From an uncultured virus (IMG/VR IMGVR_UViG_3300009873_000002) (lineage: Duplodnaviria; Heunggongvirae; Uroviricota; Caudoviricetes), in the IMG/VR virus record IMGVR_UViG_3300009873_000002, positions 108,846 to 128,845 of that record: DNA of 20,000 nucleotides. One strand, given 5' to 3'. Positions 2,852 through 18,932 of the stretch are shown here, piece after piece. Every line of letters starts with the position of its first letter. Position 1 is the first letter of the stretch. The notes under the pieces are model-generated. The model was given only the letters and a program-made list of their open reading frames with translations. It searched no databases and was not told the origin of the DNA. Both the position numbers and the translations under genes were made by a program.

Positions 2852-5065
2852 CTATCTTAGGTTCTTAAACGGGTTACGGGGAGGTCTGTTCTTCCCGCTT
2901 AAACCACCACCCGTTCCGCCAATGTGACGAAATGGGCTCTTATCTAATTTAACGATTTTATCTGACTTGTGCAAATTATCATTGCGTTCTAAACGCTTGC
3001 TATATCCTCGGTTGGCCTGTTGAATCTTCATGAAAGCAACCAAAGCAGCAAAGGAAACTAACCGGTCAACGTTGATATCTTCGTTGTAAGCGGTCATCTC
3101 CTTGATCAGCATAGGATCCGGAATGCGTTCTACACCGAATGTAATCTTCACAATATCACCGTTTTCCTTGGTTTCTACATCAAGTTCTTCGGTAAGGTAT
3201 TCAATAGCATAACTGAGCAGGTGATTCTTGAATATGGTACCTACGTTCTTCCAACCATACTCTTGGTACACATTACTATTGGCGCCAAGATCTTTGAGGA
3301 AGAGGATCTGATTCTTAGGCACCAGATAGCGCTGCTTACGCTTACTGATCATGTACTGGATAAATAAGGAAACGTTGTTCTCAACAACCGCCCATGCATT
3401 ATACCACTCCAGCATCAACTCCAAACGCTCATGAGTTTTGTTGATATCATTGAATCGACCACACCAAGCAGCCACAATCTTATCCCTCTCGATGAAGGTT
3501 TCGAACGTACCATCCCCGCGCTCGCGTGTTACTTCTATCGCATTCTTCATGATATAGATGGAACACAGAGATTCGGAGGTTGTAGTTTTTCCTTCAGATA
3601 CCGGGTCAATTGATGCGTAGTACATTCCAAACTCAGGCTTATCAACTGGTCTCTCCCATACAACAATAGATCCTTCTTTATCCTCAGCCTTTTTATCTAC
3701 CGGGAAAGTTGATATAGGAAGCTTGTTAGTTTCTTTCCACTGAATCTTACCTGAAGCATCCCGGGATAGATCCACAAAAGTGTACGGGTATTCTTTATCC
3801 TCGATTCGCTTACCTTGCTTGGCCAGGAGATGGATCGGGAACTTAGACTCTTTACGGTAAGCAAAGGCTTCCGCAATATTTCTTGGGCGCTGAGAAACTT
3901 CAAGCTGATAATCCTCGGGATCCAAAACCTTCTTGAGGTGTTCAAACTCCTTGTTTAAAGCATCAAGAGCTTCTTCAACTTTAGAGTTACCGAACTCATC
4001 AATGAATGGCGGCATTGACCATTGCTCTGGTAAAAACAAACCAGTCTTTCCGATTGTACCTTTCTCATCTAAGAGATTGGTCTCAACAGGATACATCCCG
4101 TTAGCTTCAGGATTCAGGATGAATTTCTTCAGAGGTTCACATTGTTCAAGATCACCCACAGAACCTGCAATGATGAAGATACCGGTAGTCTGTTGACCGA
4201 ATCGCATAGCTGGTTTGATATAACCATAGGTTTCATCAGCATCCGGGGCAATACCACCCTCTTCGTAAAAGAAGATACGACATGGACCCCCTACACCTGC
4301 AGCAGGATCTTGTTCAAACGAAGTACCTTTGATCTCACCTTTCAAACCTTCATCATACTTTCTACCATTGGCATCAGTCACCTCGATCTTCTGCTCCCAG
4401 TGGAGAGGCTTACCAGGATTCATGGGACGATACCATGCTGTATTCTTATTGAGGAATGATCTGTACTCATCAAAGAACTTCCAGCTACCAGACGCATCAA
4501 TGTAACCCTTAAGACTTGCACCGATCTTTCCTTTGAAACCTTCTTCGAACCAAACATAATTTGTAAGTTTGGCTACGTGATAGTAGGATGATGCAATCTG
4601 TCGTTTCTTAAGAACAGGTGCATGTTTATAATACAACTCCGCCAGTAACTCATAGAGGGCCATGTGATACTGCACATCCATGACTTCGGGGAAAGCGAAC
4701 TTATTCTTCCGCTTGTCATTTATCTGCAGATAGTTTAACCACATGTAATACTCTCGAGGTATGTACCAGGTGTGGGATCCACTTATGAATAATACACCTA
4801 ATCGACAGCGTTCTTTATTTGTATCCCAATATCGATCGTAATCTCGGGTCTTCTTGGGAGCTCCGCAATAGAATCCTCTTTGCTCAAATATCCTGGATTG
4901 TTCGTTGAAGACGTAGGAAGTATCATTGAACTGGTACTTACCAGGTTCCCTGAACAATGGTGTTAGGAAGTCGCGGAATTCATCCCGGGTACCGAAACCA
5001 GTGTACTCCCAGTTACCGTTACGCCATGTAGGCACATCTATGAAAGGTTTAGTGGCGTGGGTCAT
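2852..5065 (-). CDS. terL: Terminase large subunit
   Basis: 737 aa; ATPase motifs VLKKRQIASSY (Walker A-like) and IFFYEEGG (Walker B); RNase H-like nuclease motifs YYASIDP, VVENN and NVDRLVSF. Confidence 0.93.
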   Translation of the reverse strand: MTHATKPFIDVPTWRNGNWEYTGFGTRDEFRDFLTPLFREPGKYQFNDTSYVFNEQSRIFEQRGFYCGAPKKTRDYDRYWDTNKERCRLGVLFISGSHTWYIPREYYMWLNYLQINDKRKNKFAFPEVMDVQYHMALYELLAELYYKHAPVLKKRQIASSYYHVAKLTNYVWFEEGFKGKIGASLKGYIDASGSWKFFDEYRSFLNKNTAWYRPMNPGKPLHWEQKIEVTDANGRKYDEGLKGEIKGTSFEQDPAAGVGGPCRIFFYEEGGIAPDADETYGYIKPAMRFGQQTTGIFIIAGSVGDLEQCEPLKKFILNPEANGMYPVETNLLDEKGTIGKTGLFLPEQWSMPPFIDEFGNSKVEEALDALNKEFEHLKKVLDPEDYQLEVSQRPRNIAEAFAYRKESKFPIHLLAKQGKRIEDKEYPYTFVDLSRDASGKIQWKETNKLPISTFPVDKKAEDKEGSIVVWERPVDKPEFGMYYASIDPVSEGKTTTSESLCSIYIMKNAIEVTRERGDGTFETFIERDKIVAAWCGRFNDINKTHERLELMLEWYNAWAVVENNVSLFIQYMISKRKQRYLVPKNQILFLKDLGANSNVYQEYGWKNVGTIFKNHLLSYAIEYLTEELDVETKENGDIVKITFGVERIPDPMLIKEMTAYNEDINVDRLVSFAALVAFMKIQQANRGYSKRLERNDNLHKSDKIVKLDKSPFRHIGGTGGGLSGKNRPPRNPFKNLR

Positions 5066-5844: not shown

Positions 5845-6111
5845 TTAAACCTCCCCATGCGACCAAGTTGCCGCTTTTACCGCGTTCATTTGCGCATCTT
5901 CCATAGCACTGATAGCTTTAGAATAGTAGCGTTTCTTGTCCGGGTTGTTGGTAGCATTACGAGCTACATGACATTGATCAATGAACTGTGCTGCAATTCC
6001 CTTGAGCACGGTTACCTCGGAGTGTCCTCTAGAATTAAAGTTTACACCTGCGGCTTTCTCACCGAAGGTTAATTCGCGCTGCTGTGCGCCTTCTTCTGTT
6101 ACATTCTCCAT
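5845..6111 (-). CDS. Acb2/Tad1-like helical-hairpin protein (putative immune-signal sponge)
   Basis: 88 aa with TFGEKAAGVNFN...KRYYSKAISAMEDAQMNAVKAATW, resembling the Acb2/Tad1-like hairpin family; adjacent to tad2. Confidence 0.6.
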   Translation of the reverse strand: MENVTEEGAQQRELTFGEKAAGVNFNSRGHSEVTVLKGIAAQFIDQCHVARNATNNPDKKRYYSKAISAMEDAQMNAVKAATWSHGEV

Positions 6112-11115: not shown

Positions 11116-11465
11116 GGTTGGTATCTATTATCGACAACAGCATTTACACACGCTTCATCAGTACAAGCTTTAATCTGGTCCTTCAATGCTGATCCGGAAA
11201 ACAACGGTGTTGTTTTAGCTGAAACTGCAGCCAGATAGAAGTTAATCTTGTTAGCTAAAGTGAGGTAGTAAACACTCTCATCTTTGGTTGATATCGGTAT
11301 AGGAAAAGCAGCATCTGGTAATAATGGTATATTACTCCAGTTGATCTGCGCAGTAAGAGACATAGAAAATGTCTTGTTGTCAAAGACAAACCCTTGATCT
11401 ATGATTAAACGAGATACCTCATCAATCTCGTTGTATCTGATATCTTTTAACTCGTCTAGTGTCAT
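11112..11465 (-). CDS. Tail-associated protein (DUF4376-like)
   Basis: LDELKDIRYNEIDE...GFVFDNKTF...LKDQIKACTDEACVNAV pattern, typical of small genes following tail fibres. Confidence 0.55.
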   Translation of the reverse strand: MTLDELKDIRYNEIDEVSRLIIDQGFVFDNKTFSMSLTAQINWSNIPLLPDAAFPIPISTKDESVYYLTLANKINFYLAAVSAKTTPLFSGSALKDQIKACTDEACVNAVVDNRYQP

Positions 11466-12064
11466 GTTAATATACTGGTTGCTTGGTAAACATCAAGTGT
11501 ATGGTTAGATCCTGCAGTAACAACCTCCCATTGTAAGTCAATTGTATTGGGTATAGCTTTATTCCAGGTTCCTGATCCTCGAACTGTCCGACGATTTATT
11601 TCGGAAGTCGCAGTCTGGTTGAATAATCTGAACAATCCTTCAACCGTATTTCCGGCACGAAAAGTGAGATCTACTTCGAATATGAAGAAACGACCTGATA
11701 TAATACCAACACCCGGTGCAAAAGGAGCAAATGTTAAAGTCAGTCCTCCAATGTTAACTCTGAAGTTTATAGTACCCGGACCTCCGGTTTTACTATATTG
11801 GCAGATGACTTGGATCTTTCTCGAGCGACCATCAACTACTGCAGCATCTACGGGAAATGGCATGCTCATGAAATTGGACATAGGAGATATCCCAGCTTTA
11901 GCATAAGAGGCTGCAACTGGAAAAAGATATTCAGACTTCACATTTCCACTACCTGCAACTATATCAGCCATCGTAGCAAATGGATTGCCCGGTGCTGGTG
12001 CATTAGCATTCATCAAAGCCTTAAACTGGTTGTAAGGCAGTAGTTGGTCTATCTCTGTCTTCAT
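11462..12064 (-). CDS. Putative virion/tail protein (beta-rich)
   Basis: 200 aa, G/T/V-rich beta-strand pattern, within the tail block. Confidence 0.55.
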   Translation of the reverse strand: MKTEIDQLLPYNQFKALMNANAPAPGNPFATMADIVAGSGNVKSEYLFPVAASYAKAGISPMSNFMSMPFPVDAAVVDGRSRKIQVICQYSKTGGPGTINFRVNIGGLTLTFAPFAPGVGIISGRFFIFEVDLTFRAGNTVEGLFRLFNQTATSEINRRTVRGSGTWNKAIPNTIDLQWEVVTAGSNHTLDVYQATSILT

Positions 12065-13250: not shown

Positions 13251-15197
13251 TTAGAATACTGTTGGGATTATTAGACCTGGATCAACAATAACCCCGGTCG
13301 GAGTGAATACGTCAGTTACAAAAGCACTATTCGGTTTGCGTGTACGTACATTTTGGAAGCCTGATGTTACGGGAACACTTCCTGCTACAAGCTCTCCAAG
13401 AGCGCCTGCGCTGTCAGCCTCACAATTGTACATATAGATGTTATTACCAAGTTGGAACAAGTCAATCAATGCGATTGTACTATCCACTCGTGCATTATAC
13501 AATCTGCAGTCTTTTAAGTACAGCACATTGTTAGGTTGGTCAGGTAAACCTACATAACCAACACCTTGAACAATTACATAAGGATAAGGACCTGTAGTAC
13601 CGTTGCTCGAAATCAAACCTTGTTCAACCATAACCGGGCAAGTACTGCTCGATTGGCGAATAGCTTCTCGGTTACTTGACACGGATCCTTTGACATACAC
13701 ACGACCAACATCACCAACTACACCATCAGTTTGGATACCGGCATGATCATTTCCTGTGATGTTACCGTAGATCTTTACATTTCCACCGCGTACCGCAACT
13801 GTGTAGTGTTCTACACCAGCTGCTGGAACACCTGTTATAATCATATTACCTCTTACGGTAATATTAGAGGTTATAGGTGTAGTATTACCACAGTTCAATA
13901 CATCACGCTCATAGTTCGATGTACTGTTACCGTTCATGGTGATCTCAGGACATTCGATGTAAAGATTACCTTGGAACACTGCGGCTCCACTGTTTCTCAC
14001 AAAGAATATTCTTCGGTTAGAAATAATGTAGTCACGCACAAATAACTTCACATTACACAATCCACGGAATGTTGACATGAAGTTGAATCCGGCAAATGGA
14101 GTAGCATTGATCTTGTTACCCTTGATTGTAACGTTTGCAGTAGTTACAGTAGGCGCAATAGAGAATGCATAAAATGATGTTGTTATATGATCAAACTCGA
14201 AGTTGATAGTTGATCCTCCAGTGATGTTCAATACACCTATGAAACCATTTACAACAAGACTACCGGTAACTTTACAAGTTACGGATCCACCACCATCCTG
14301 GAATCCTCCAGAGATAATAGTAGCACCTGGTTCGAAATAGAAATCAACAAGGTTTTTGAAAGTCAATGTAGGCGGTGAGTATTGTCCTCTGCGTACATAG
14401 ATCAAAGCAGGTGTACCTGCAGGGGCTGCAGCAAGCGCTGCTTGTATAGTTTGATAAGGACGATCAAGTCTGTTAGGAAGACCGGTACCATCGTTACCAA
14501 ATGCAGCATCTACATAGTAGTCGCTGGCTGGTAAACTGAATGTCGGAGCTGCCGGTGATGTGCACAATCTGGTACCGTCTGGGAAGTGTATACAACCATC
14601 ACAGATATCAGTGATCTCTTGGCGTTCGTAGATAAATCCACCACCACCCCCTGCTTGCCAATCGATGAATGAAATAAGGTAGTACTTATCATTCACCGTA
14701 TCATGCATCACAAGACTGTTACCCGGAAGAGATCCAAAGGATCCGAGGTTATTTATTACCTCATTGTATAACGTGTCATAAGTCAGATTCTTTACCTGAC
14801 TTAAGTCACTTGTATCAAATGACCATTCGGTGTTTGCGGGCGAACCTGCATTTGCAGAGCTTTCCACGAGAGGGTTATACAACCACTGGCTTAATCCACG
14901 AGTGATAGCAACATCTTTATCGATGTTGTCATAAACAGTGGCGCCAGTACCGGTTGGATGATTGAAGATAAATTTCTCACTCAGGGTAAAACTCTTCTGC
15001 AGGTTTACCGAGCATTGAGATACACCCATAGCAGCAATGAAGTCTTCGACAAGCATAGCCATCTCGCGATATTTGGTGCTGTCTCGCTTACTATTTATGC
15101 TGCGACCTACAAGAATGAGGTCTTTATTTTTGATTAACTCAGAGGCTTTAAGAAGACCGTACTGAGCGACCATTGCGTTAAAATTTACTATATCCAT
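13251..15197 (-). CDS. Tail fibre/spike-like protein with right-handed beta-helix (pectin-lyase-like) domain
   Basis: YYVDAAFGNDGTG...PYQTIQAALAA...IYVRRGQY cap motif followed by N/G/I/T-rich beta-helix coils. Confidence 0.7.
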   Translation of the reverse strand: MDIVNFNAMVAQYGLLKASELIKNKDLILVGRSINSKRDSTKYREMAMLVEDFIAAMGVSQCSVNLQKSFTLSEKFIFNHPTGTGATVYDNIDKDVAITRGLSQWLYNPLVESSANAGSPANTEWSFDTSDLSQVKNLTYDTLYNEVINNLGSFGSLPGNSLVMHDTVNDKYYLISFIDWQAGGGGGFIYERQEITDICDGCIHFPDGTRLCTSPAAPTFSLPASDYYVDAAFGNDGTGLPNRLDRPYQTIQAALAAAPAGTPALIYVRRGQYSPPTLTFKNLVDFYFEPGATIISGGFQDGGGSVTCKVTGSLVVNGFIGVLNITGGSTINFEFDHITTSFYAFSIAPTVTTANVTIKGNKINATPFAGFNFMSTFRGLCNVKLFVRDYIISNRRIFFVRNSGAAVFQGNLYIECPEITMNGNSTSNYERDVLNCGNTTPITSNITVRGNMIITGVPAAGVEHYTVAVRGGNVKIYGNITGNDHAGIQTDGVVGDVGRVYVKGSVSSNREAIRQSSSTCPVMVEQGLISSNGTTGPYPYVIVQGVGYVGLPDQPNNVLYLKDCRLYNARVDSTIALIDLFQLGNNIYMYNCEADSAGALGELVAGSVPVTSGFQNVRTRKPNSAFVTDVFTPTGVIVDPGLIIPTVF

Positions 15198-15221
15198 CTT
15201 CGAAGGTATTAGGTGTACAAC

Positions 15222-15253
15222 CTAATATACGAAAATGTTACGATACCTCCAAA
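15222..15253 (-). promoter_or_regulatory. Putative promoter of the tail block (TTTG-N20-TATATTAG)
   Basis: One mismatch to the Bacteroidota -7 consensus, with a correctly spaced -33 TTTG; overlapped by an 8-bp inverted repeat (15207-15227). Confidence 0.45.
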
Positions 15254-15259
15254 TTTTTG

Positions 15260-15331
15260 TTGCCCGAGCTGGATTCGAACCAACCTTCCTTGAACCAAAA
15301 TCAAGTGTCCTGCCAGATAGACGATCGGGCA
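15260..15331 (-). tRNA. tRNA-Gln(UUG)
   Basis: Cloverleaf; anticodon arm CTTGA-TT-TTG-GT-TCAAG; U1-A72. Confidence 0.95.
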
Positions 15332-15336
15332 TTAAG

Positions 15337-15409
15337 AGGTCCCGGAGGGATTCAAACCCCCAACCTTTTGATCCGTATTCAAATGCTCATTCAGTTGAGC
15401 TACGGGACC
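15337..15409 (-). tRNA. tRNA-Arg(ACG)
   Basis: GGTCCCG/CGGGACC acceptor stem; TTTGA-AT-ACG-GA-TCAAA (unusual A32). Confidence 0.9.
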
Positions 15410-15421
15410 TGGTAATCTTTG

Positions 15422-15496
15422 GGTGGCCGGTGGGCTTCGAACCCACAAATCCGAGAACCACAATCTCGTGAGTCTACCCAATTCCTCTACGACCAC
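15422..15496 (-). tRNA. tRNA-His(GUG)
   Basis: CGAGA-TT-GTG-GT-TCTCG; C73; genomic -1 base is T, not G. Confidence 0.93.
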
Positions 15497-15498
15497 AG

Positions 15499-15572
15499 AG
15501 CCCAAGGAGGGAATCGAACCCCCGACCCTCTGTTTACAAAACAGTAGCTCTAACCTGCTGAGCTACTTGGGC
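15499..15572 (-). tRNA. tRNA-Thr(UGU)
   Basis: GCCCAAG/CTTGGGC; ACTGT-TT-TGT-AA-ACAGA. Confidence 0.95.
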
Positions 15573-15580
15573 TTAATCAG

Positions 15581-15655
15581 TACTCCGGACGGGATTTGAA
15601 CCCGTGATCTTCAGGATGAAAACCTGATGTCCTGGACCAGCTAGACGACCGGAGC
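15581..15655 (-). tRNA. tRNA-Glu(UUC)
   Basis: TCAGG-TT-TTC-AT-CCTGA. Confidence 0.95.
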
Positions 15656-15663
15656 AAAACCGG

Positions 15664-15714
15664 TTGATAGGGCGGACCTGGTACTATATCCGCTTTTATC
15701 AGGCATTCCTATCA
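15664..15714 (-). ncRNA. Small structured RNA (tRNA minihelix-like / pseudoknot-capable)
   Basis: TGATAGG/CCTATCA 7-bp stem stacked on a GCGGA/TCCGC 5-bp stem; CCTG/CAGG cross-pairing possible. Confidence 0.4.
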
Positions 15715-15718
15715 TCAG

Positions 15719-15792
15719 TAGCGGGGGTGCGACTCGAACGCACGACCTTTGGGTTATGAGCCCAACGAGCTGACCAACTGCTCTACCCCGCC
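15719..15792 (-). tRNA. tRNA-Met(CAU), initiator-like
   Basis: TTGGG-CT-CAT-AA-CCCAA (three G-C pairs), A11-U24, G1.U72 wobble. Confidence 0.9.
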
Positions 15793-15800
15793 ATTACCTG

Positions 15801-15874
15801 TGGATCCTACCGGTTTCGAACCTGTTACCTTCGCATTATGAGTGCGCTGCTCTAACCAATTGAGCTAAGGATCC
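15801..15874 (-). tRNA. tRNA-Ile2(CAU) (lysidine type; elongator Met not excluded)
   Basis: GCGCA-CT-CAT-AA-TGCGA; Ile2-like body, A73; the leader of this operon contains an ATA codon. Confidence 0.75.
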
Positions 15875-15879
15875 AGTTG

Positions 15880-15952
15880 TACCCTCGGTAGGACTCGAAC
15901 CTACAACCTTAAGCTTAGAAGTCTCCTGCTCTTCCAATTGAGCTACGAGGGC
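15880..15952 (-). tRNA. tRNA-Arg(UCU) with weakened anticodon stem
   Basis: A20 Arg identity element; GGAGA-CT-TCT-AA-GCTTA (G27xA43 and A31xG39 mismatches). Confidence 0.85.
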
Positions 15953-15955
15953 TTG

Positions 15956-16026
15956 TTCCCCCACCGAGAATCGAACTCAGGTCAATAGATTAAAAGTCTA
16001 CGGCTTTACCACTAAGCTATGAGGGA
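15956..16026 (-). tRNA. tRNA-Lys(UUU)
   Basis: GTAGA-CT-TTT-AA-TCTAT; U1-A72; 4-nt variable loop. Confidence 0.93.
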
Positions 16027-16034
16027 ATGAAGAA

Positions 16035-16100
16035 TCATGACGAACGTTTTCGTCTGCTCTTTATTCTATCCCATATCAATAGTACCATTGCCATTTTCAT
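16035..16100 (-). CDS. Putative 21-aa micro-ORF MKMAMVLLIWDRIKSRRKRSS
   Basis: Fills the Val-Lys tRNA spacer; A-rich sequence before the ATG. Confidence 0.35.
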   Translation of the reverse strand: MKMAMVLLIWDRIKSRRKRSS

Positions 16101-16108
16101 TTTTGTTG

Positions 16109-16183
16109 TAGGAACAGAGAGATTCGAACTCCCGGCCCTCTCCTTGTAAGGGAGATGCTCTGAACCAGCTGAGCTATGTTCCT
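16109..16183 (-). tRNA. tRNA-Val(UAC)
   Basis: TCTCC-CT-TAC-AA-GGAGA. Confidence 0.95.
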
Positions 16184-16186
16184 ATT

Positions 16187-16264
16187 TGGTCGACACACAT
16201 GGATTTGAACCACGGACCCCCACATTATCAGTGTGGTACTCTAACCAAGCTGAGCTATGTGTCG
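16187..16264 (-). tRNA. tRNA-Ile(GAU)
   Basis: CCACA-CT-GAT-AA-TGTGG; encoded ACCA end. Confidence 0.95.
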
Positions 16265-16270
16265 ATTTTG

Positions 16271-16343
16271 CGTACTGGGTTGGGTTCGAACCAACGTACT
16301 CTTGATTAACAGTCAAGTGCTGAACCAGCTCAGCTACCAGTAC
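16271..16343 (-). tRNA. tRNA-Asn(GUU)
   Basis: CTTGA-CT-GTT-AA-TCAAG; G73; 5' 14 nt overlap the end of the HNH ORF. Confidence 0.95.
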
Positions 16344-16668
16344 TTTTTGCATGTTCCTCTCTATGACAGTTTGCACATAGAAGTTCACATTTGTCAATTT
16401 CCTCTTTAACCTTTTCCCAACTCCGTGTGTATCCCTTGTCACTAATACTAAAATCCTTACCTCCTTTATGATGGAAATCAAGAGCATCCACGCATTTATC
16501 ATATCCACACCTCTCACATTTACCACCCTTATAAGCTACAGCCATTAGCTTAATCTTCTTCCTACGCTTAGCTACAGCTTCGACCATGCACTTTTTACAT
16601 CTCCAACAGTTTTGATCCTTTCTGAGAGAGTGTTCTTGTAAACCATGCTTACGACATTCCTTTTCCAT
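16330..16668 (-). CDS. HNH endonuclease (Zn-finger type, putative homing endonuclease)
   Basis: CKKC, CERC..ALDFHH...CELLCANCHREEH; start at ATG 16668 (MEKECRKHG). Confidence 0.88.
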   Translation of the reverse strand: MEKECRKHGLQEHSLRKDQNCWRCKKCMVEAVAKRRKKIKLMAVAYKGGKCERCGYDKCVDALDFHHKGGKDFSISDKGYTRSWEKVKEEIDKCELLCANCHREEHAKSTGS

Positions 16669-16672
16669 TCTA

Positions 16673-16703
16673 CAAAGGTATAACAATTTCTTGTTATACC
16701 AAT
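16673..16703 (-). promoter_or_regulatory. Internal promoter for HNH (ATTG-N19-TACCTTTG) within a perfect 10-bp inverted repeat
   Basis: TACCTTTG at 16673-16680, 4 nt before the ATG; GGTATAACAA-GAAA-TTGTTATACC at 16677-16700. Confidence 0.65.
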
Positions 16704-16706
16704 CTT

Positions 16707-16811
16707 TGGGGCCGAGTAGGGTTCTTAACCCACATCCATCGTCTTTAAGTCAACGACCGTTTTCACCTCCAGTGTCAGCACGCCACACCGGATCTTTTAA
16801 ACTATCGGCCA
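16707..16811 (-). ncRNA. tRNA-like RNA with a hairpin inserted in the D-loop
   Basis: GGCCGA/TCGGCC acceptor followed by CCA; TA; GTTT/AAAC D-stem enclosing TCCGGTGT/ACACTGGA; GTCGTT/GACGAT stem with GACTTAAA loop; GTGGG/CCTAC T-like stem. Confidence 0.65.
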
Positions 16812-16817
16812 ATCCTG

Positions 16818-16891
16818 CGGTCTATATGGGACTCGAACCCATGATCTCCTCCGTGACAGGGAGGCGTCCACTCCAACTGGACTGATAGACC
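16818..16891 (-). tRNA. tRNA-Asp(GUC)
   Basis: CCTCC-CT-GTC-AC-GGAGG; G73; C8 instead of U8. Confidence 0.93.
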
Positions 16892-16903
16892 TTCAATTGC
16901 TTC

Positions 16904-17029
16904 GAGAGACACTCTTGCAAAACACAGCTTTTTCAAACATCGTCCTCGGCTTCTAAGGACTGTGGGCTTTAACCACTCTGTGTTCATCATACCATCTCAG
17001 CCAACAGTACTGCTGTCACTGTATCTCTC
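16904..17029 (-). ncRNA. Candidate multi-branched structured RNA
   Basis: Closing stem GAGAGATAC/GTGTCTCTC; inner AACACAG/CTGTGTT enclosing GTGG/CCAC and GTCCT/AGGAC hairpins. Confidence 0.45.
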
Positions 17030-17059
17030 AGGCGCCCAAGTGATAGTTGGGTACCGGTG

Positions 17060-17133
17060 AGCGAGTGGTGAGACTCGAACTCACAACACCCTGCTTGGAA
17101 GGCAGGTACTCTAGCCAATTGAGCTACACTCGC
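17060..17133 (-). tRNA. tRNA-Gly(UCC)
   Basis: CCTGC-CT-TCC-AA-GCAGG; U73. Confidence 0.95.
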
Positions 17134-17175
17134 TGGTCGAGCGGATTTTAACGAGTACCGCCCATACTCTCGTTG

Positions 17176-17250
17176 TGGAATGGCTGGGATTTGAACCCAG
17201 GACCTTCTGCTTGCAAAGCAGCTGCTCGACCAGACCGAGCTCCGCACCCC
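17176..17250 (-). tRNA. tRNA-Ala(UGC), atypical
   Basis: G3.U70, A73; GCTGC-TT-TGC-AA-GCAGA; extra base at the acceptor-D junction and no U8/A14. Confidence 0.8.
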
Positions 17251-17304
17251 TAGTGACCCTTTTCTTTAATTTTCAGTTTGTGGCGGTCAATCCGTATCTG
17301 CTAG

Positions 17305-17377
17305 TCTAAGTGGCAGGACTCGAACCTGCGGCCTGAACATCCCAAATGTCCCGCGCTACCAACTGCGCTACACCTAG
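17305..17377 (-). tRNA. tRNA-Pro(UGG)
   Basis: C1-G72; GGACA-TT-TGG-GA-TGTTC; begins immediately after the terminator U-tract. Confidence 0.95.
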
Positions 17378-17413
17378 AAAATAAAAAGGCCCCCGGTGTT
17401 AGCGGAGGCCTTT
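17378..17413 (-). terminator. Attenuator terminator of tRNA operon A
   Basis: AAAGGCCTCCG-CTAACAC-CGGGGGCC-TTTTTATTTT between the leader ORF and tRNA-Pro. Confidence 0.88.
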
Positions 17414-17438
17414 GGTATCATTGGGTTGGTGTTGTCTA

Positions 17439-17543
17439 TTATCCTTTGATGAATATACCCAAAATAGCGGCCTCCAGAGATAGGCGATCCACGCCTTTCT
17501 CCATCGTATTAATCGGTTGCGCTATATGTTGTAGTTGTCTCAT
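17439..17543 (-). CDS. Leader peptide A (34 aa) MRQLQHIAQPINTMEKGVDRLSLEAAILGIFIKG
   Basis: Starts 8 nt after a TATATTTG -7 box; codons 2 and 6-20 cover the 16 codon boxes of the 16 downstream tRNAs; contains the antiterminator GGAGGCC. Confidence 0.85.
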   Translation of the reverse strand: MRQLQHIAQPINTMEKGVDRLSLEAAILGIFIKG

Positions 17544-17551
17544 CTGCTCTG

Positions 17552-17582
17552 CAAATATACATAGAATCTTTATACGTGCAAC
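17552..17582 (-). promoter_or_regulatory. Bacteroidota sigma-A promoter of tRNA operon A
   Basis: GTTG-N19-TATATTTG. Confidence 0.8.
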
Positions 17583-17620
17583 ATTACATGTAAACTTTTT
17601 TTACTTTTCTATACATGTAG

Positions 17621-17694
17621 TACTCCCGATGGGATTCGAACCCATACTGGACGGATTTTAAGTCCGTTGACTCTGCCGGTTGGCCTACGGGAGT
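17621..17694 (-). tRNA. tRNA-Leu(UAA), short variable loop
   Basis: ACGGA-CT-TAA-AA-TCCGT; 5-nt variable region; A73. Confidence 0.92.
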
Positions 17695-17750
17695 TTGTGT
17701 ATCATTAATCTTCAATTATGAGACACAAAATAATTTGCGTCTCATCTGTG

Positions 17751-17825
17751 TACCCCTACTCGGACTCGAACCGAGAAAACTTCTGATCCTAAGTCAGACG
17801 ACTTTACCAATTTGCCCATAGGGGT
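17751..17825 (-). tRNA. tRNA-Leu(UAG), short variable loop
   Basis: TCTGA-CT-TAG-GA-TCAGA; 6-nt variable region; A73. Confidence 0.92.
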
Positions 17826-17830
17826 ATGAG

Positions 17831-17916
17831 CGGAGAACAGTGGCCCTGATCCACAATCGGTGTTAGCCGATCGAGCAGCTTAGCAGGCTGTCCCTACCCA
17901 GGTAGGTTTGCTCTCC
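17831..17916 (-). tRNA. tRNA-Ser(GCU), 8/4 fold
   Basis: GGAGAGCA/TGTTCTCC 8-bp acceptor, GTGG/CCAC 4-bp T-stem, 5-bp D-stem, long variable arm, G73. Confidence 0.85.
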
Positions 17917-17921
17917 TTGAG

Positions 17922-17993
17922 AGGTACCGGCAGGATTTGAACCCGCGTAATCGAGTTTTGCAAACTGATGACTAACCACTCATCCACGGTACC
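17922..17993 (-). tRNA. tRNA-Cys(GCA)
   Basis: U73; TCAGT-TT-GCA-AA-ACT(C)GA with a bulged C. Confidence 0.88.
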
Positions 17994-18048
17994 TTATTTA
18001 AGTTTCCGGCCGTAAAGTTAAATAGCCGAATTCTTATTTTACTTTCTG

Positions 18049-18119
18049 CACAGAGTGTAGGGATCGAACCCACCCGGCAAGGTTTTGGAGGCCCGCCCGC
18101 TGCCATCGCTGTACTCTGT
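18049..18119 (-). tRNA. tRNA-Trp(CCA), atypical
   Basis: Perfect ACAGAGT/ACTCTGT acceptor and T-arm, CT-CCA-AA loop, G73; weak D-arm and C31xA39. Confidence 0.72.
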
Positions 18120-18125
18120 GTGTTG

Positions 18126-18216
18126 CGGAAAGCGGAGGACCCGACCCCCAGTCCAGTTACCCAGACACCCAGTTTTCAAGACTGGTCGCGGCTCCAATGC
18201 CACTGCTTCACTTTCC
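18126..18216 (-). tRNA. tRNA-Ser(UGA), 8/4 fold
   Basis: GGAAAGTG/CGCTTTCC 8-bp acceptor, GGGG/CCTC T-stem, CCAGT-CT-TGA-AA-ACTGG, long variable arm, G73. Confidence 0.85.
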
Positions 18217-18224
18217 ATTCTATG

Positions 18225-18310
18225 TGGGACCCGGTGGACTCGAACCACTCCCCATTGCTGAGACCGAATTTACAGTCCGGCTGCCGTATCCAAGACGACT
18301 TTCAGTTCCC
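18225..18310 (-). tRNA. tRNA-Tyr(GUA), probable 8/4 fold
   Basis: GGGAACTG/CGGGTCCC acceptor (one mismatch), GTGG-TTCGAGT-CCAC, 5-bp D-stem, GCCGGA-CT-GTA-AA-TTCGGT, variable arm CTCA-GCAA-TGGG, A73. Confidence 0.87.
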
Positions 18311-18317
18311 AAGTTTG

Positions 18318-18389
18318 TGAGACCACGTGGAATCGAACCACGGCTGTCGGCTCTTCAGGCCGATGCTCTACCAACTGAGCTATAGTCCC
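18318..18389 (-). tRNA. tRNA-Phe(GAA)
   Basis: TCGGC-CT-GAA-GA-GCCGA (G37); starts 2 nt after the terminator U-tract. Confidence 0.93.
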
Positions 18390-18391
18390 GG

Positions 18392-18429
18392 AAAACAAAA
18401 ACCCCGGTATCATTGCTGACCCGGGGCTT
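18392..18429 (-). terminator. Attenuator terminator of tRNA operon B
   Basis: AAGCCCCGGGTCA-GCAA-TGATACCGGGGTTTTTGTTTT (GNRA-capped hairpin plus U-tract). Confidence 0.88.
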
Positions 18430-18462
18430 CTGTGTATGCAAGAGGTAACTTCTTGTACTCAG

Positions 18463-18534
18463 CTATGCGCGTTCCTGGGCAGCTCCTGGATGGAGTAACC
18501 AAAACGAACAATAACTGAGTAATAATGCTTTCAT
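18463..18534 (-). CDS. Leader peptide B (23 aa) MKALLLSYCSFWLLHPGAAQERA
   Basis: ATG 4 nt after the TATCTTTG -7 box (near-leaderless); codons 5-12 match the 8 downstream tRNAs one-for-one. Confidence 0.88.
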   Translation of the reverse strand: MKALLLSYCSFWLLHPGAAQERA

Positions 18535-18538
18535 GTGA

Positions 18539-18570
18539 CAAAGATAATGCATGCAATCGGATCCACCAAA
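18539..18570 (-). promoter_or_regulatory. Bacteroidota sigma-A promoter of tRNA operon B
   Basis: Consensus TTTG-N20-TATCTTTG. Confidence 0.85.
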
Positions 18571-18623
18571 GGTTTTCTCAACTTTTTTCATGGTGGTGTC
18601 AGCAATAACCAGTATATTATAAT

Positions 18624-18932
18624 ATGAAGATTCAAGAAATAGCAAACGATCCCGGGACCTATATCTTCCACTGTCCGGGCTGTGGTATGTTACACCAGGT
18701 GCCGACCAAGAGAGCCGGTGGTCCAAACTGGTCGTTCAATGGGAGTATGCAACGGCCGACCTTTAGTCCAAGCTTGTTGATCCGGTTCCCGCATTTCGAT
18801 GGAAGTAAGGATGTCAATTTAGTTTGTCACAGTTTCGTAAAAGATGGGAACATTCAATATTTGAGTGACTCCAGTCATGAACTGGCCGGACATACTGTAG
18901 AGATTCCGGAAGTAGAGACTTTCCTGAACTAA
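18624..18932 (+). CDS. DUF6527-like small metal-binding protein
   Basis: FHCPGCG..H, WSFNGS..RPTFSPSLL and CHSFVKDGNIQYLSDS.H.LAG.TV motifs. Confidence 0.75.
   Translation: MKIQEIANDPGTYIFHCPGCGMLHQVPTKRAGGPNWSFNGSMQRPTFSPSLLIRFPHFDGSKDVNLVCHSFVKDGNIQYLSDSSHELAGHTVEIPEVETFLN

Follow-up and report, generated by a model that had tools for sequence, protein, structure and literature searches.

Why should the tRNA genes of a phage be divided into two blocks, each of which lies behind a short open reading frame (ORF) and a hairpin of its own? This question is raised by a tRNA array found in a 20,000-nucleotide stretch of DNA (the window) from an uncultured virus of the Caudoviricetes (IMG/VR record IMGVR_UViG_3300009873_000002, positions 108,846 to 128,845). 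Phage tRNA genes are usually treated as constitutive cargo. We consider it probable that the two units described here are ribosome-mediated leader-peptide transcription attenuators, one before each tRNA block. The core of this reading, that the codons of each leader match the tRNA block it would gate, is strongly supported by the sequence. Beyond this core, we infer that the leaders are translated, that an antiterminator switch operates within them, and that read-through into the tRNA genes is regulated.

A viral contig of 128,845 bp (42.6% G+C) ends with the 20 kb of the window. A Bacteroidota host appears likely for the virus because all 136 GenBank matches to its TerL protein are to Bacteroidota-phage-type records (crAss-like, Bacteroides, Flavobacterium, Cellulophaga and Azobacteroides phages), at identities of no more than 27%. 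The tRNA array, the promoters, the leaders and the terminators are all carried on the minus strand. At its default settings ARAGORN identifies 22 tRNAs at 15259-18389, and a lowered threshold adds two non-canonical tRNAs, one Trp-like with a CCA anticodon and the other Ser GCT. A 242-nt gap cuts the array into two blocks, here termed B and A (Table 1). Block A contains two tRNAs with a CAT anticodon, one of which is closest to tRNAs annotated as fMet whilst the other matches tRNA-Met. The tRNA at 17176-17248 (Rfam score 40.7 bits) is labeled Gln(ctg) by ARAGORN, a call that we rejected in favor of Ala because of its TGC loop and G3:U70 pair.

The two units are built to the same plan, in which a promoter is followed by a short ORF, a hairpin with a U-run, and the first tRNA of the block. 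An earlier note on this DNA had described such a shared layout, with a sigma-A promoter, leader ORF, terminator and first tRNA within 0-2 nt, and this is what is seen in both units. The U-run of terminator A (17385-17378) runs directly into tRNA-Pro, whose first base is 17377, leaving a gap of 0 nt, and 2 nt separate terminator B (U-run 18400-18391) from tRNA-Phe. Terminator B was not called by the terminator scan because its 13-nt loop exceeds the 8-nt limit of that scan. A 10-mer, CAATGATACC, is common to the two leader units (17416-17425 and 18406-18415, minus strand), lying directly before the terminator in unit A and spanning the terminator loop and 3' arm in unit B. An Rfam search of positions 15000-18800 at E-values up to 1 found no T-box, other riboswitch or any other family on the leaders.

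To describe what the leaders spell, their codons were assigned to the 24 boxes set by the anticodons of the array. Codons 4-14 of leader B are block B codons without exception (11/11), and between them they cover all eight boxes of the block, each Leu and each Ser box being represented; no amino acids other than Leu, Ser, Tyr, Cys, Phe and Trp are encoded in this matched segment. Leader A covers all 16 block A boxes in codons 1-20, with AGA and CGC present for the two Arg tRNAs and with a single outsider (CTA, Leu). Crossover between the two sets is confined to that one codon: block A codons account for 0 of the 11 in the leader B segment, and block B codons for 1 of the 20 in the leader A segment. 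Downstream of the matched segments there is no partition, the tail of leader B being made up of block A codons (HPGAAQERA) and the tail of leader A being mixed. The earlier claim that leader B samples Leu, Ser, Tyr, Cys, Phe and Trp and leader A the other 14 amino acids thus holds for the matched segments, apart from the stray Leu in A, but does not extend to either tail. In the same way, the claimed correspondence down to isoacceptor boxes is borne out for the two Leu, two Ser and two Arg tRNAs, whereas the 'two Ile' part of it would need a tRNA-Ile2 and the CAT tRNAs match fMet and Met.

How exceptional these matches are can be judged against the 2447 ORFs that begin with ATG and extend for 20 codons or more across the 128.8-kb genome. 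Leader A alone among them covers 16/16 block A boxes, with a runner-up score of 14 that is reached by five ORFs. Leader B (counted with its two in-frame ATGs) is alone in covering 8/8 boxes within an 11-codon window and in having an unbroken run of 11, the runner-up run being 9. Each of these genome-extreme ORFs sits right before the block that it matches. Under random codon models the exact probability of the match is 1.5-1.9e-6 for leader A and 1.9-2.7e-7 for leader B. Since the leader B segment is T-rich (18 of its 33 bases) and T-first codons are those for Leu, Phe, Ser, Tyr, Cys and Trp, shuffles of the bases of each segment were also run, and these equaled the observed match in only 74 (B) and 61 (A) per 2,000,000 cases. 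Chance is not a reasonable explanation of the codon match. Some codons in the matched segments are rare within their families (GCG 0.08, ACG 0.06, GGC 0.07, TCG 0.07 of the family), which we do not take as evidence because sequence unshaped by protein function would look alike.

The same arrangement is found in Cellulophaga phage phi4:1 (NC_021788.1), an unrelated cultured phage chosen by tRNA similarity alone. This phage has three tRNA blocks, and before each of them stand a leader that matches it and a terminator (Table 1). Codons 4-14 of leader 1 (QRLHLQELEQP) are all in the set of the following block and cover 7/7 boxes (P 3.3e-8); this run of 11 compares with a runner-up of 7 among 762 ORFs. 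Leader 2 draws on Thr, Lys, Gly, Ile, Val, Asp, Ala and Arg-AGA codons, with 23 of its 26 post-start sense codons in the set and 9/9 non-Met boxes covered. Codons 4-17 of leader 3 cover 7/7 boxes with one outsider, a result matched by about 1 in 2,000,000 random draws. The tRNAs of phi4:1 are partitioned differently from those of the window, with the Leu tRNAs grouped with Pro, Glu, Gln and His, and the leaders track the partition. The earlier note had asked whether leader codon sets co-vary with anticodon sets, and in this unrelated phage they do so across three differently composed blocks. The leaders of phage phi17:2 (NC_021798.1) are as those of phi4:1, with one synonymous change only.

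The units of phi4:1 and phi17:2 resemble those of the window in that a promoter of the TAnnTTTG type precedes a short ORF that opens with MK and carries a matched segment, and in that a terminator abuts the first tRNA. They differ in having no sequence similarity to the window units, in serving three blocks, and in partitioning the tRNAs in another way. The phages also belong to different families, the two Cellulophaga phages being members of Lightbulbvirus and the phage of the window a distant crAss-like relative. In GenBank the leader units of phi4:1 and phi17:2 are unannotated or apparently mis-annotated (phi4:1 gp075/gp076). The ORF gp075 (gp077 in phi17:2; L092 4049-4168, NC_021788.1) is annotated from a TTG that lies within the leader 2 promoter, and gp076 (gp078 in phi17:2; L092 6177-6278) overlaps an unannotated tRNA-Ser(TGA). 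The phi4:1 tRNA annotated as 'pseudo' at L092 6913-6986 reads as Cys GCA, and in phi17:2 a tRNA-Lys has been left unannotated.

A blind scanner was run over nine arrays using default tRNA calls and Bonferroni adjustment, and only the window and phi4:1 gave significant results. It returned adjusted P values of 1.8e-3 for leader A and 2.1e-2 for leader B in the window, and of 3.7e-5 for leader 1 and 1.3e-2 for leader 3 in phi4:1, and it understates the signal because it uses the default tRNA calls. In the seven other arrays, which were assessed by the scanner alone, no matched leader was detected (minimum adjusted P 0.06 to 1); these were the arrays of crAss-like cr111_1, Phass-1, Vibrio phage Bakedbeans, DSS3_MAL1, Aeromonas phage CC2, Bacillus phage P59 and Alishewanella phage Slicko01.

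Table 1. Coordinates of the leader units, tRNA blocks and associated features; positions refer to the window unless another record is named, and promoters, hairpins, terminators and antiterminator are predictions.
Feature	Position	Strand	Description and basis
Promoter B	18539..18570	-	TTTG 18570-18567, N20, TATCTTTG 18546-18539; ATG 4 nt on; sequence, motif search
Leader B ORF	18463..18534	-	23 codons and stop, MKALLLSYCSFWLLHPGAAQERA; ORF translation
Leader B matched segment, codons 4-14	18493..18525	-	TTA TTA CTC AGT TAT TGT TCG TTT TGG TTA CTC
Leader B hairpin 1:2	18458..18521	-	5' arm, codons 5-12; 3' arm, 18480-18458, with stop codon; folding
Terminator B	18391..18433 (hairpin 18433-18395)	-	GC-rich stem, 13-nt loop, then UUUUUGUUUU; folding, stem -17.1 kcal/mol
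tRNA block B, n=8	17620..18389	-	Phe GAA, Tyr GTA, Ser TGA, Trp-like CCA, Cys GCA, Ser GCT, Leu TAG, Leu TAA
Trp-like CCA tRNA	18049-18120	-	CUCCAAA loop motif; Rfam 20.8 bits, below cut-off
Ser GCT tRNA	17830-17912	-	low-threshold ARAGORN only; non-canonical
Promoter A	17552..17581	-	TTG 17581-17579, N19, TATATTTG 17559-17552; ATG 8 nt on; motif search
Leader A ORF	17439..17543	-	34 codons and stop, MRQLQHIAQPINTMEKGVDRLSLEAAILGIFIKG; ORF translation
Leader A matched segment, codons 1-20	17484..17543	-	codon-box mapping
Leader A predicted antiterminator, codons 23-25	17469..17476	-	UGGAGGCC; pairs with terminator 5' arm GGCCUCCG
Terminator A	17378..17413 (hairpin 17413-17385)	-	11-bp stem, 7-nt loop, then UUUUUAUUUU; scan call and folding
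tRNA block A, n=16	15259..17377	-	Pro, Ala, Gly, Asp, Asn, Ile GAT, Val, Lys, Arg TCT, CAT, CAT, Glu, Thr, His, Arg ACG, Gln; HNH gene inserted
HNH homing-endonuclease gene (phrog_2255)	16330..16702 including promoter; ATG 16668	-	112 codons; 3' end overlaps tRNA-Asn by 14 nt
HNH gene promoter	16702-16673	-	TTG-N19-TACCTTTG-N4-ATG; motif search
TAYCTTTG-N4-ATG sites	C1 46191(+), 22991(+), 18872(+), 33781(-); window 16668(-), 18534(-)		motif search
phi4:1 unit 1	U-run L092 ~3246-3255		TATGTTTG-N4-ATG, then MKIQRLHLQELEQPIISGGTGV and stop, terminator abutting tRNA-Pro; block Pro, Glu, Gln, His, Leu TAG, Leu TAA, Arg ACG
phi4:1 unit 2	U-run L092 ~4219-4229		promoter as unit 1, leader ending VQLTKTGITVIDKTKGARAYLGDTVIG and stop, terminator; block Ala, Lys, Ile, Gly, CAT, Asp, Thr, Val, Arg TCT, CAT
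phi4:1 unit 3	U-run L092 ~5975-5985		leader MKTNYCTYNNSNWSFSYDTGSVCTLGSDGLIG (begins MKTNYCTYNNSNWSFSY) and stop, terminator; block Tyr, Ser TGA, Ser GCT, Asn, Trp, Phe, Cys

For the matched codons to act as sensors the leaders would have to be transcribed and translated. The sigma-A promoter consensus of the Bacteroidota consists of a -33 TTTG and a -7 TAnnTTTG element spaced by 19-21 nt, and both promoter A (N19) and promoter B (N20) fit this spacing. In the form TAYCTTTG-N4-ATG the -7 element heads not only leader B but also five long ORFs, comprising ORFs of 247, 189, 157 and 100 codons and the 112-codon HNH gene. Under the consensus the N4 spacing puts the A of the ATG at the transcript start, which would make the mRNAs leaderless, and the leader B mRNA is on this basis probably of this type. 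In phi4:1 the annotated genes gp015 and helicase gp079 start 4 and 3 nt, respectively, after such a motif. The occurrence of this motif-ATG spacing before long ORFs here and before genes of phi4:1 supports the idea that the leaders are translated, which we regard as plausible.

We envisage that the units would work as follows. Transcription would start at the Bacteroidota-type promoter a few bases before the leader ATG, and a ribosome would translate the leader while RNA polymerase nears the terminator. With the front of the leader spelled in codons of the downstream tRNAs, at about 1-3 codons per box, slow reading of any or several of the matched codons would cause the ribosome to linger in the matched segment. 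A downstream segment of the leader would then be left free to pair with the 5' arm of the terminator, and the polymerase would enter the tRNA genes. Fast decoding would instead bring the ribosome over or past that segment, allowing the terminator to form and ending the transcript right before the first tRNA. Since the products of a block would relieve the stall that induces them, each block would be under negative feedback, amounting to supply on demand. The earlier note had pictured this as an OR gate that opens upon stalling at any sampled codon. Because most boxes appear only once or twice, we infer rather that the leader sums decoding delays over the boxes, such that one severe or several mild stalls would suffice.

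Folding of the leader RNAs predicts a layout of the trp type, with alternative 1:2, 2:3 and 3:4 hairpins and with the matched codons in the stretch over which stalling would make a difference. Stripped of its terminator, leader B folds with a z score of -4.27, with 0 of 200 shuffles as good, and in this fold codons 5-12 pair with 18480-18458, a stretch that includes the stop codon. We modeled stalling by blocking a ribosome-sized stretch and folding the transcript before the terminator 3' arm exists. In this model a footprint on codons 2-13 of leader B leads 18480-18460 to pair with the terminator 5' arm (11 pairs), and with the footprint elsewhere a weak 6-pair contact remains. In leader A the sequence GGAGGCC (17475-17469) pairs with GGCCUCC in the terminator arm, and is free at footprints on codons 1-19 and covered at 20-29; in the full-length fold the antiterminator segment pairs upstream with 17524-17513. 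The predicted energies of the antiterminator and terminator folds of leader A are -31.4 and -34.3 kcal/mol, respectively, and the antiterminator duplex itself has an energy of -16.7 kcal/mol against -11.9 +/- 2.4 kcal/mol for shuffles. For phi4:1 leader 1 the modeled antiterminator is free only when the hungry codon is one of codons 1-14, a range whose limit is the end of the matched run, and for leader 2 the corresponding range is codons 1-18. Counts of terminator-arm pairs, used as a measure of the stall window, were uninformative for leaders A and B and for phi4:1 leader 3.

A number of observations weigh against the attenuator reading, and some of these concern the switch itself. The advantage of the antiterminator pairings over shuffled sequences is modest, 4.1% (A) and 7.5% (B) of 2000 shuffles being as good, and placing the footprint around the A-site gives no sharp window for leader A. 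In leader B the antiterminator fold is much the weaker of the two (-22.9 kcal/mol, versus -36.3 kcal/mol for the terminator fold), and so switching in this unit would have to be kinetic. Most boxes are represented once, unlike the codon runs of classical leaders, and sensitivity to a single tRNA may be low. Nor is the TAnnTTTG motif enriched genome-wide, with 108 sites against 97 +/- 8 in shuffles. Other points concern the tRNAs. The Trp and Ser GCT tRNAs of block B are non-canonical. The ATA box depends on a putative tRNA-Ile2 and may lack a matching tRNA; another possibility is that the two matched boxes are those of the start ATG and of the ATG within the leader at codon 14. Three further tRNAs (Ile GAT, Ile AAT and Gln TTG; C1:11336-14443) lie outside the array and have no leader units, and transcription from the HNH promoter inside block A might sidestep leader A and reach 12 of the 16 tRNAs of that block. 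With these tRNAs outside the array, and with the HNH promoter able in principle to feed part of block A, the assertion that the two leaders gate the complete tRNA set of the phage does not stand. Finally, the searches turned up no close relative carrying a tRNA array that could show covariation within the lineage.

This last point can be given more exactly. The matches between GenBank phages and the window are at the level of generic tRNA similarity only. The neighboring 648-aa and 102-aa proteins each have two distant viral loci as relatives, none of them with tRNAs. Among relatives defined by TerL at ~60-66% identity (n=477), arrays are absent from those examined: 40 loci contain 0-1 tRNA and, of ten whole records, nine have none and one has a single tRNA. 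Exact patterns of leader B and of tRNA-Phe gave 0 matches in viral contigs. An 18-mer from tRNA-Cys gave three metagenome matches, which were without tRNAs and were set aside as chance. Nearly identical copies of the leaders occur in contigs from four other metagenome runs, but these strain copies are too close for a covariation test. In 3/3 other metagenomes leader B has one change, at codon 5 (TTA to TCA, Leu to Ser), that still belongs to the block B set. Leader A is unchanged in the run X2 contig, and the run X4 contig has four differences, at least two of them outside the ORF (17403, 17420). Differences between the strains fall mostly in the inter-tRNA spacers and the variable arm of tRNA-Ser GCT (17725-17738, 17860-17901, 17995-18047), the leaders being almost invariant, and one strain variant is without 51 nt between the Cys and Trp tRNAs.

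Some features within and around the array are recorded here as observations in their own right. Directly upstream of the HNH gene is a degenerate tRNA-like stretch (16708-16781) recognized by ARAGORN at low threshold. Within the HNH gene, in another frame, is a 24-codon ORF, MVYKNTLSERIKTVGDVKSAWSKL (16572-16646, minus strand), of which 11 codons cover 8 boxes of the next nine tRNAs (adjusted P 0.012 in the blind scan), with no terminator after it; this ORF could be a chance occurrence or the relic of an older leader. The 62-nt spacer at 15656-15717 (minus strand), between a CAT tRNA and tRNA-Glu, contains a hairpin (-12.2 kcal/mol) and a UUUU that abuts tRNA-Glu, with no ORF upstream. Outside the array, at C1 ~11411-11560, a tRNA-like gene is apparently interrupted in its anticodon region, the insert being an entire second tRNA gene (Ile aat according to ARAGORN), with the 5' half (acceptor, D arm and anticodon stem) preceding the insert and the 3' half (anticodon stem, T arm and acceptor) following it.

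If the two units are attenuators, the candidate purposes for them are to compensate for a mismatch with the host tRNA pool, for loss of host tRNAs during infection, or for the action of host defenses that cleave tRNAs. Phage tRNAs can rescue host tRNAs that have been cleaved by nucleases, and the link that the earlier note drew between the array and anti-phage tRNA nucleases is speculation. The last of these purposes provides the rival explanation that survives best, in which the same switch evolved mainly as a counter-defense alarm that releases replacement tRNAs upon cleavage or depletion of host tRNAs, which was the reading of the earlier note. A sensor that spans every box its block can replace would suit an unknown point of attack. 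Nevertheless, nothing in the window or the genome ties the array to a defense system, plain feedback on tRNA supply accounts for the same sequence facts, and with one codon per box the loss of a single tRNA species would be sensed weakly. We therefore hold a predominantly defensive origin to be unlikely.

More removed from our interpretation is the idea that, although the codons do match, the hairpins do not act as regulated terminators, with leader translation bearing for example on 5' processing or stability of the precursor, or the mini-ORFs having some other part in tRNA use. The weak statistics of the antiterminators would fit this idea, as would the need for processing to remove the hairpin and U-run, which on read-through form the 5' leader of the first pre-tRNA. 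A GC-rich stem followed by a U-run is, however, the signature of an intrinsic terminator (terminator A being called as such by the scan), and in leaders A and B and phi4:1 leaders 1 and 2 the stop codon and the matched segment are placed as the classical layout needs, the model for leader 3 being uninformative. These considerations make a non-regulatory hairpin improbable. We think it even harder to accept that the leaders are general sensors of translation stress that respond to any slowing of the ribosome, in the manner of upstream ORFs that sense antibiotics, rather than to tRNAs. A leader of many codons would indeed respond to any global slowing, and upstream ORFs that sense several classes of ribosome inhibitor are described (PMC12121999). 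A general sensor would, however, have no reason to split the code between leaders in the way that the tRNA genes are split, and in phi4:1 the split differs and the leaders follow it. The notion that ordinary promoters and terminators merely flank meaningless ORFs in T- or A-rich sequence is negligible, for although T-first codons in the T-rich leader B segment would give the same amino acids, shuffles of each segment's own composition so rarely equal the observed match, both leaders are extremes of their genome, and three further matched leaders are found in phi4:1 and none in seven control arrays.

Returning to the attenuator reading, we lean on balance towards a broader proposal, that Bacteroidota phages, and perhaps others, place tRNA operons under a previously undescribed type of attenuator, a leaderless codon-sampler mini-gene that would measure, box by box, how well the cell can decode just those codons that its tRNA block reads, release the tRNAs on demand and be shut off by feedback from its products. 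Such control would make the phage robust to the loss of host tRNAs, including their cleavage by defense nucleases. If this is true, there would be direct feedback between translation capacity and tRNA supply, and the division of tRNA arrays into blocks with their own promoters would be explained. It would also provide a key for reading small unannotated ORFs in tRNA arrays, amongst which phi4:1 gp075 and gp076 appear to have been mis-annotated, and a compact design from nature for a codon sensor with many inputs. As both phi4:1 and the bacterium it infects, Cellulophaga baltica, have been cultured, the idea is directly testable.

The closest known systems are the leader-peptide attenuators of amino-acid operons, such as trpL, hisL, leuL and pheL and the multivalent thrL and ilvL, in which the position of the ribosome decides between termination and read-through. 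The units described here share with these systems a promoter, a short leader rich in the codons to be sensed, alternative 1:2, 2:3 and 3:4 hairpins (here predicted), and an intrinsic terminator before the first regulated gene. They differ in that the regulated genes are tRNA genes and not those for biosynthetic enzymes, and in that 1-3 codons are present for each of 8 or 16 boxes as opposed to a run for 1-3 amino acids. They differ further in that the codon set is defined by the downstream anticodons, the mRNA is probably leaderless, and the products would act on the sensor. To our knowledge, all described leader-peptide attenuators regulate genes for amino-acid biosynthesis or aminoacyl-tRNA synthetases. 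Because the genes regulated here would be tRNAs, the units would work like members of the attenuator family without being ordinary members of it. The pheM leader of pheST likewise provides leader-peptide attenuation of a translation-apparatus gene, although its signal is a single amino acid (Phe) and its target encodes a protein. In T-box riboswitches the choice between terminator and antiterminator similarly hinges on tRNA status, but a T-box binds one uncharged tRNA with no ribosome involved and is recognizable by conserved specifier and T-box sequences. A literature search, whose scope lay largely outside subscription journals, turned up no account of tRNA genes being controlled by leader peptides. 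The mechanism that we propose is classical; its tRNA-gene target, the design of the leader as a sampler of many boxes, and the feedback by its products depart from the classical form.

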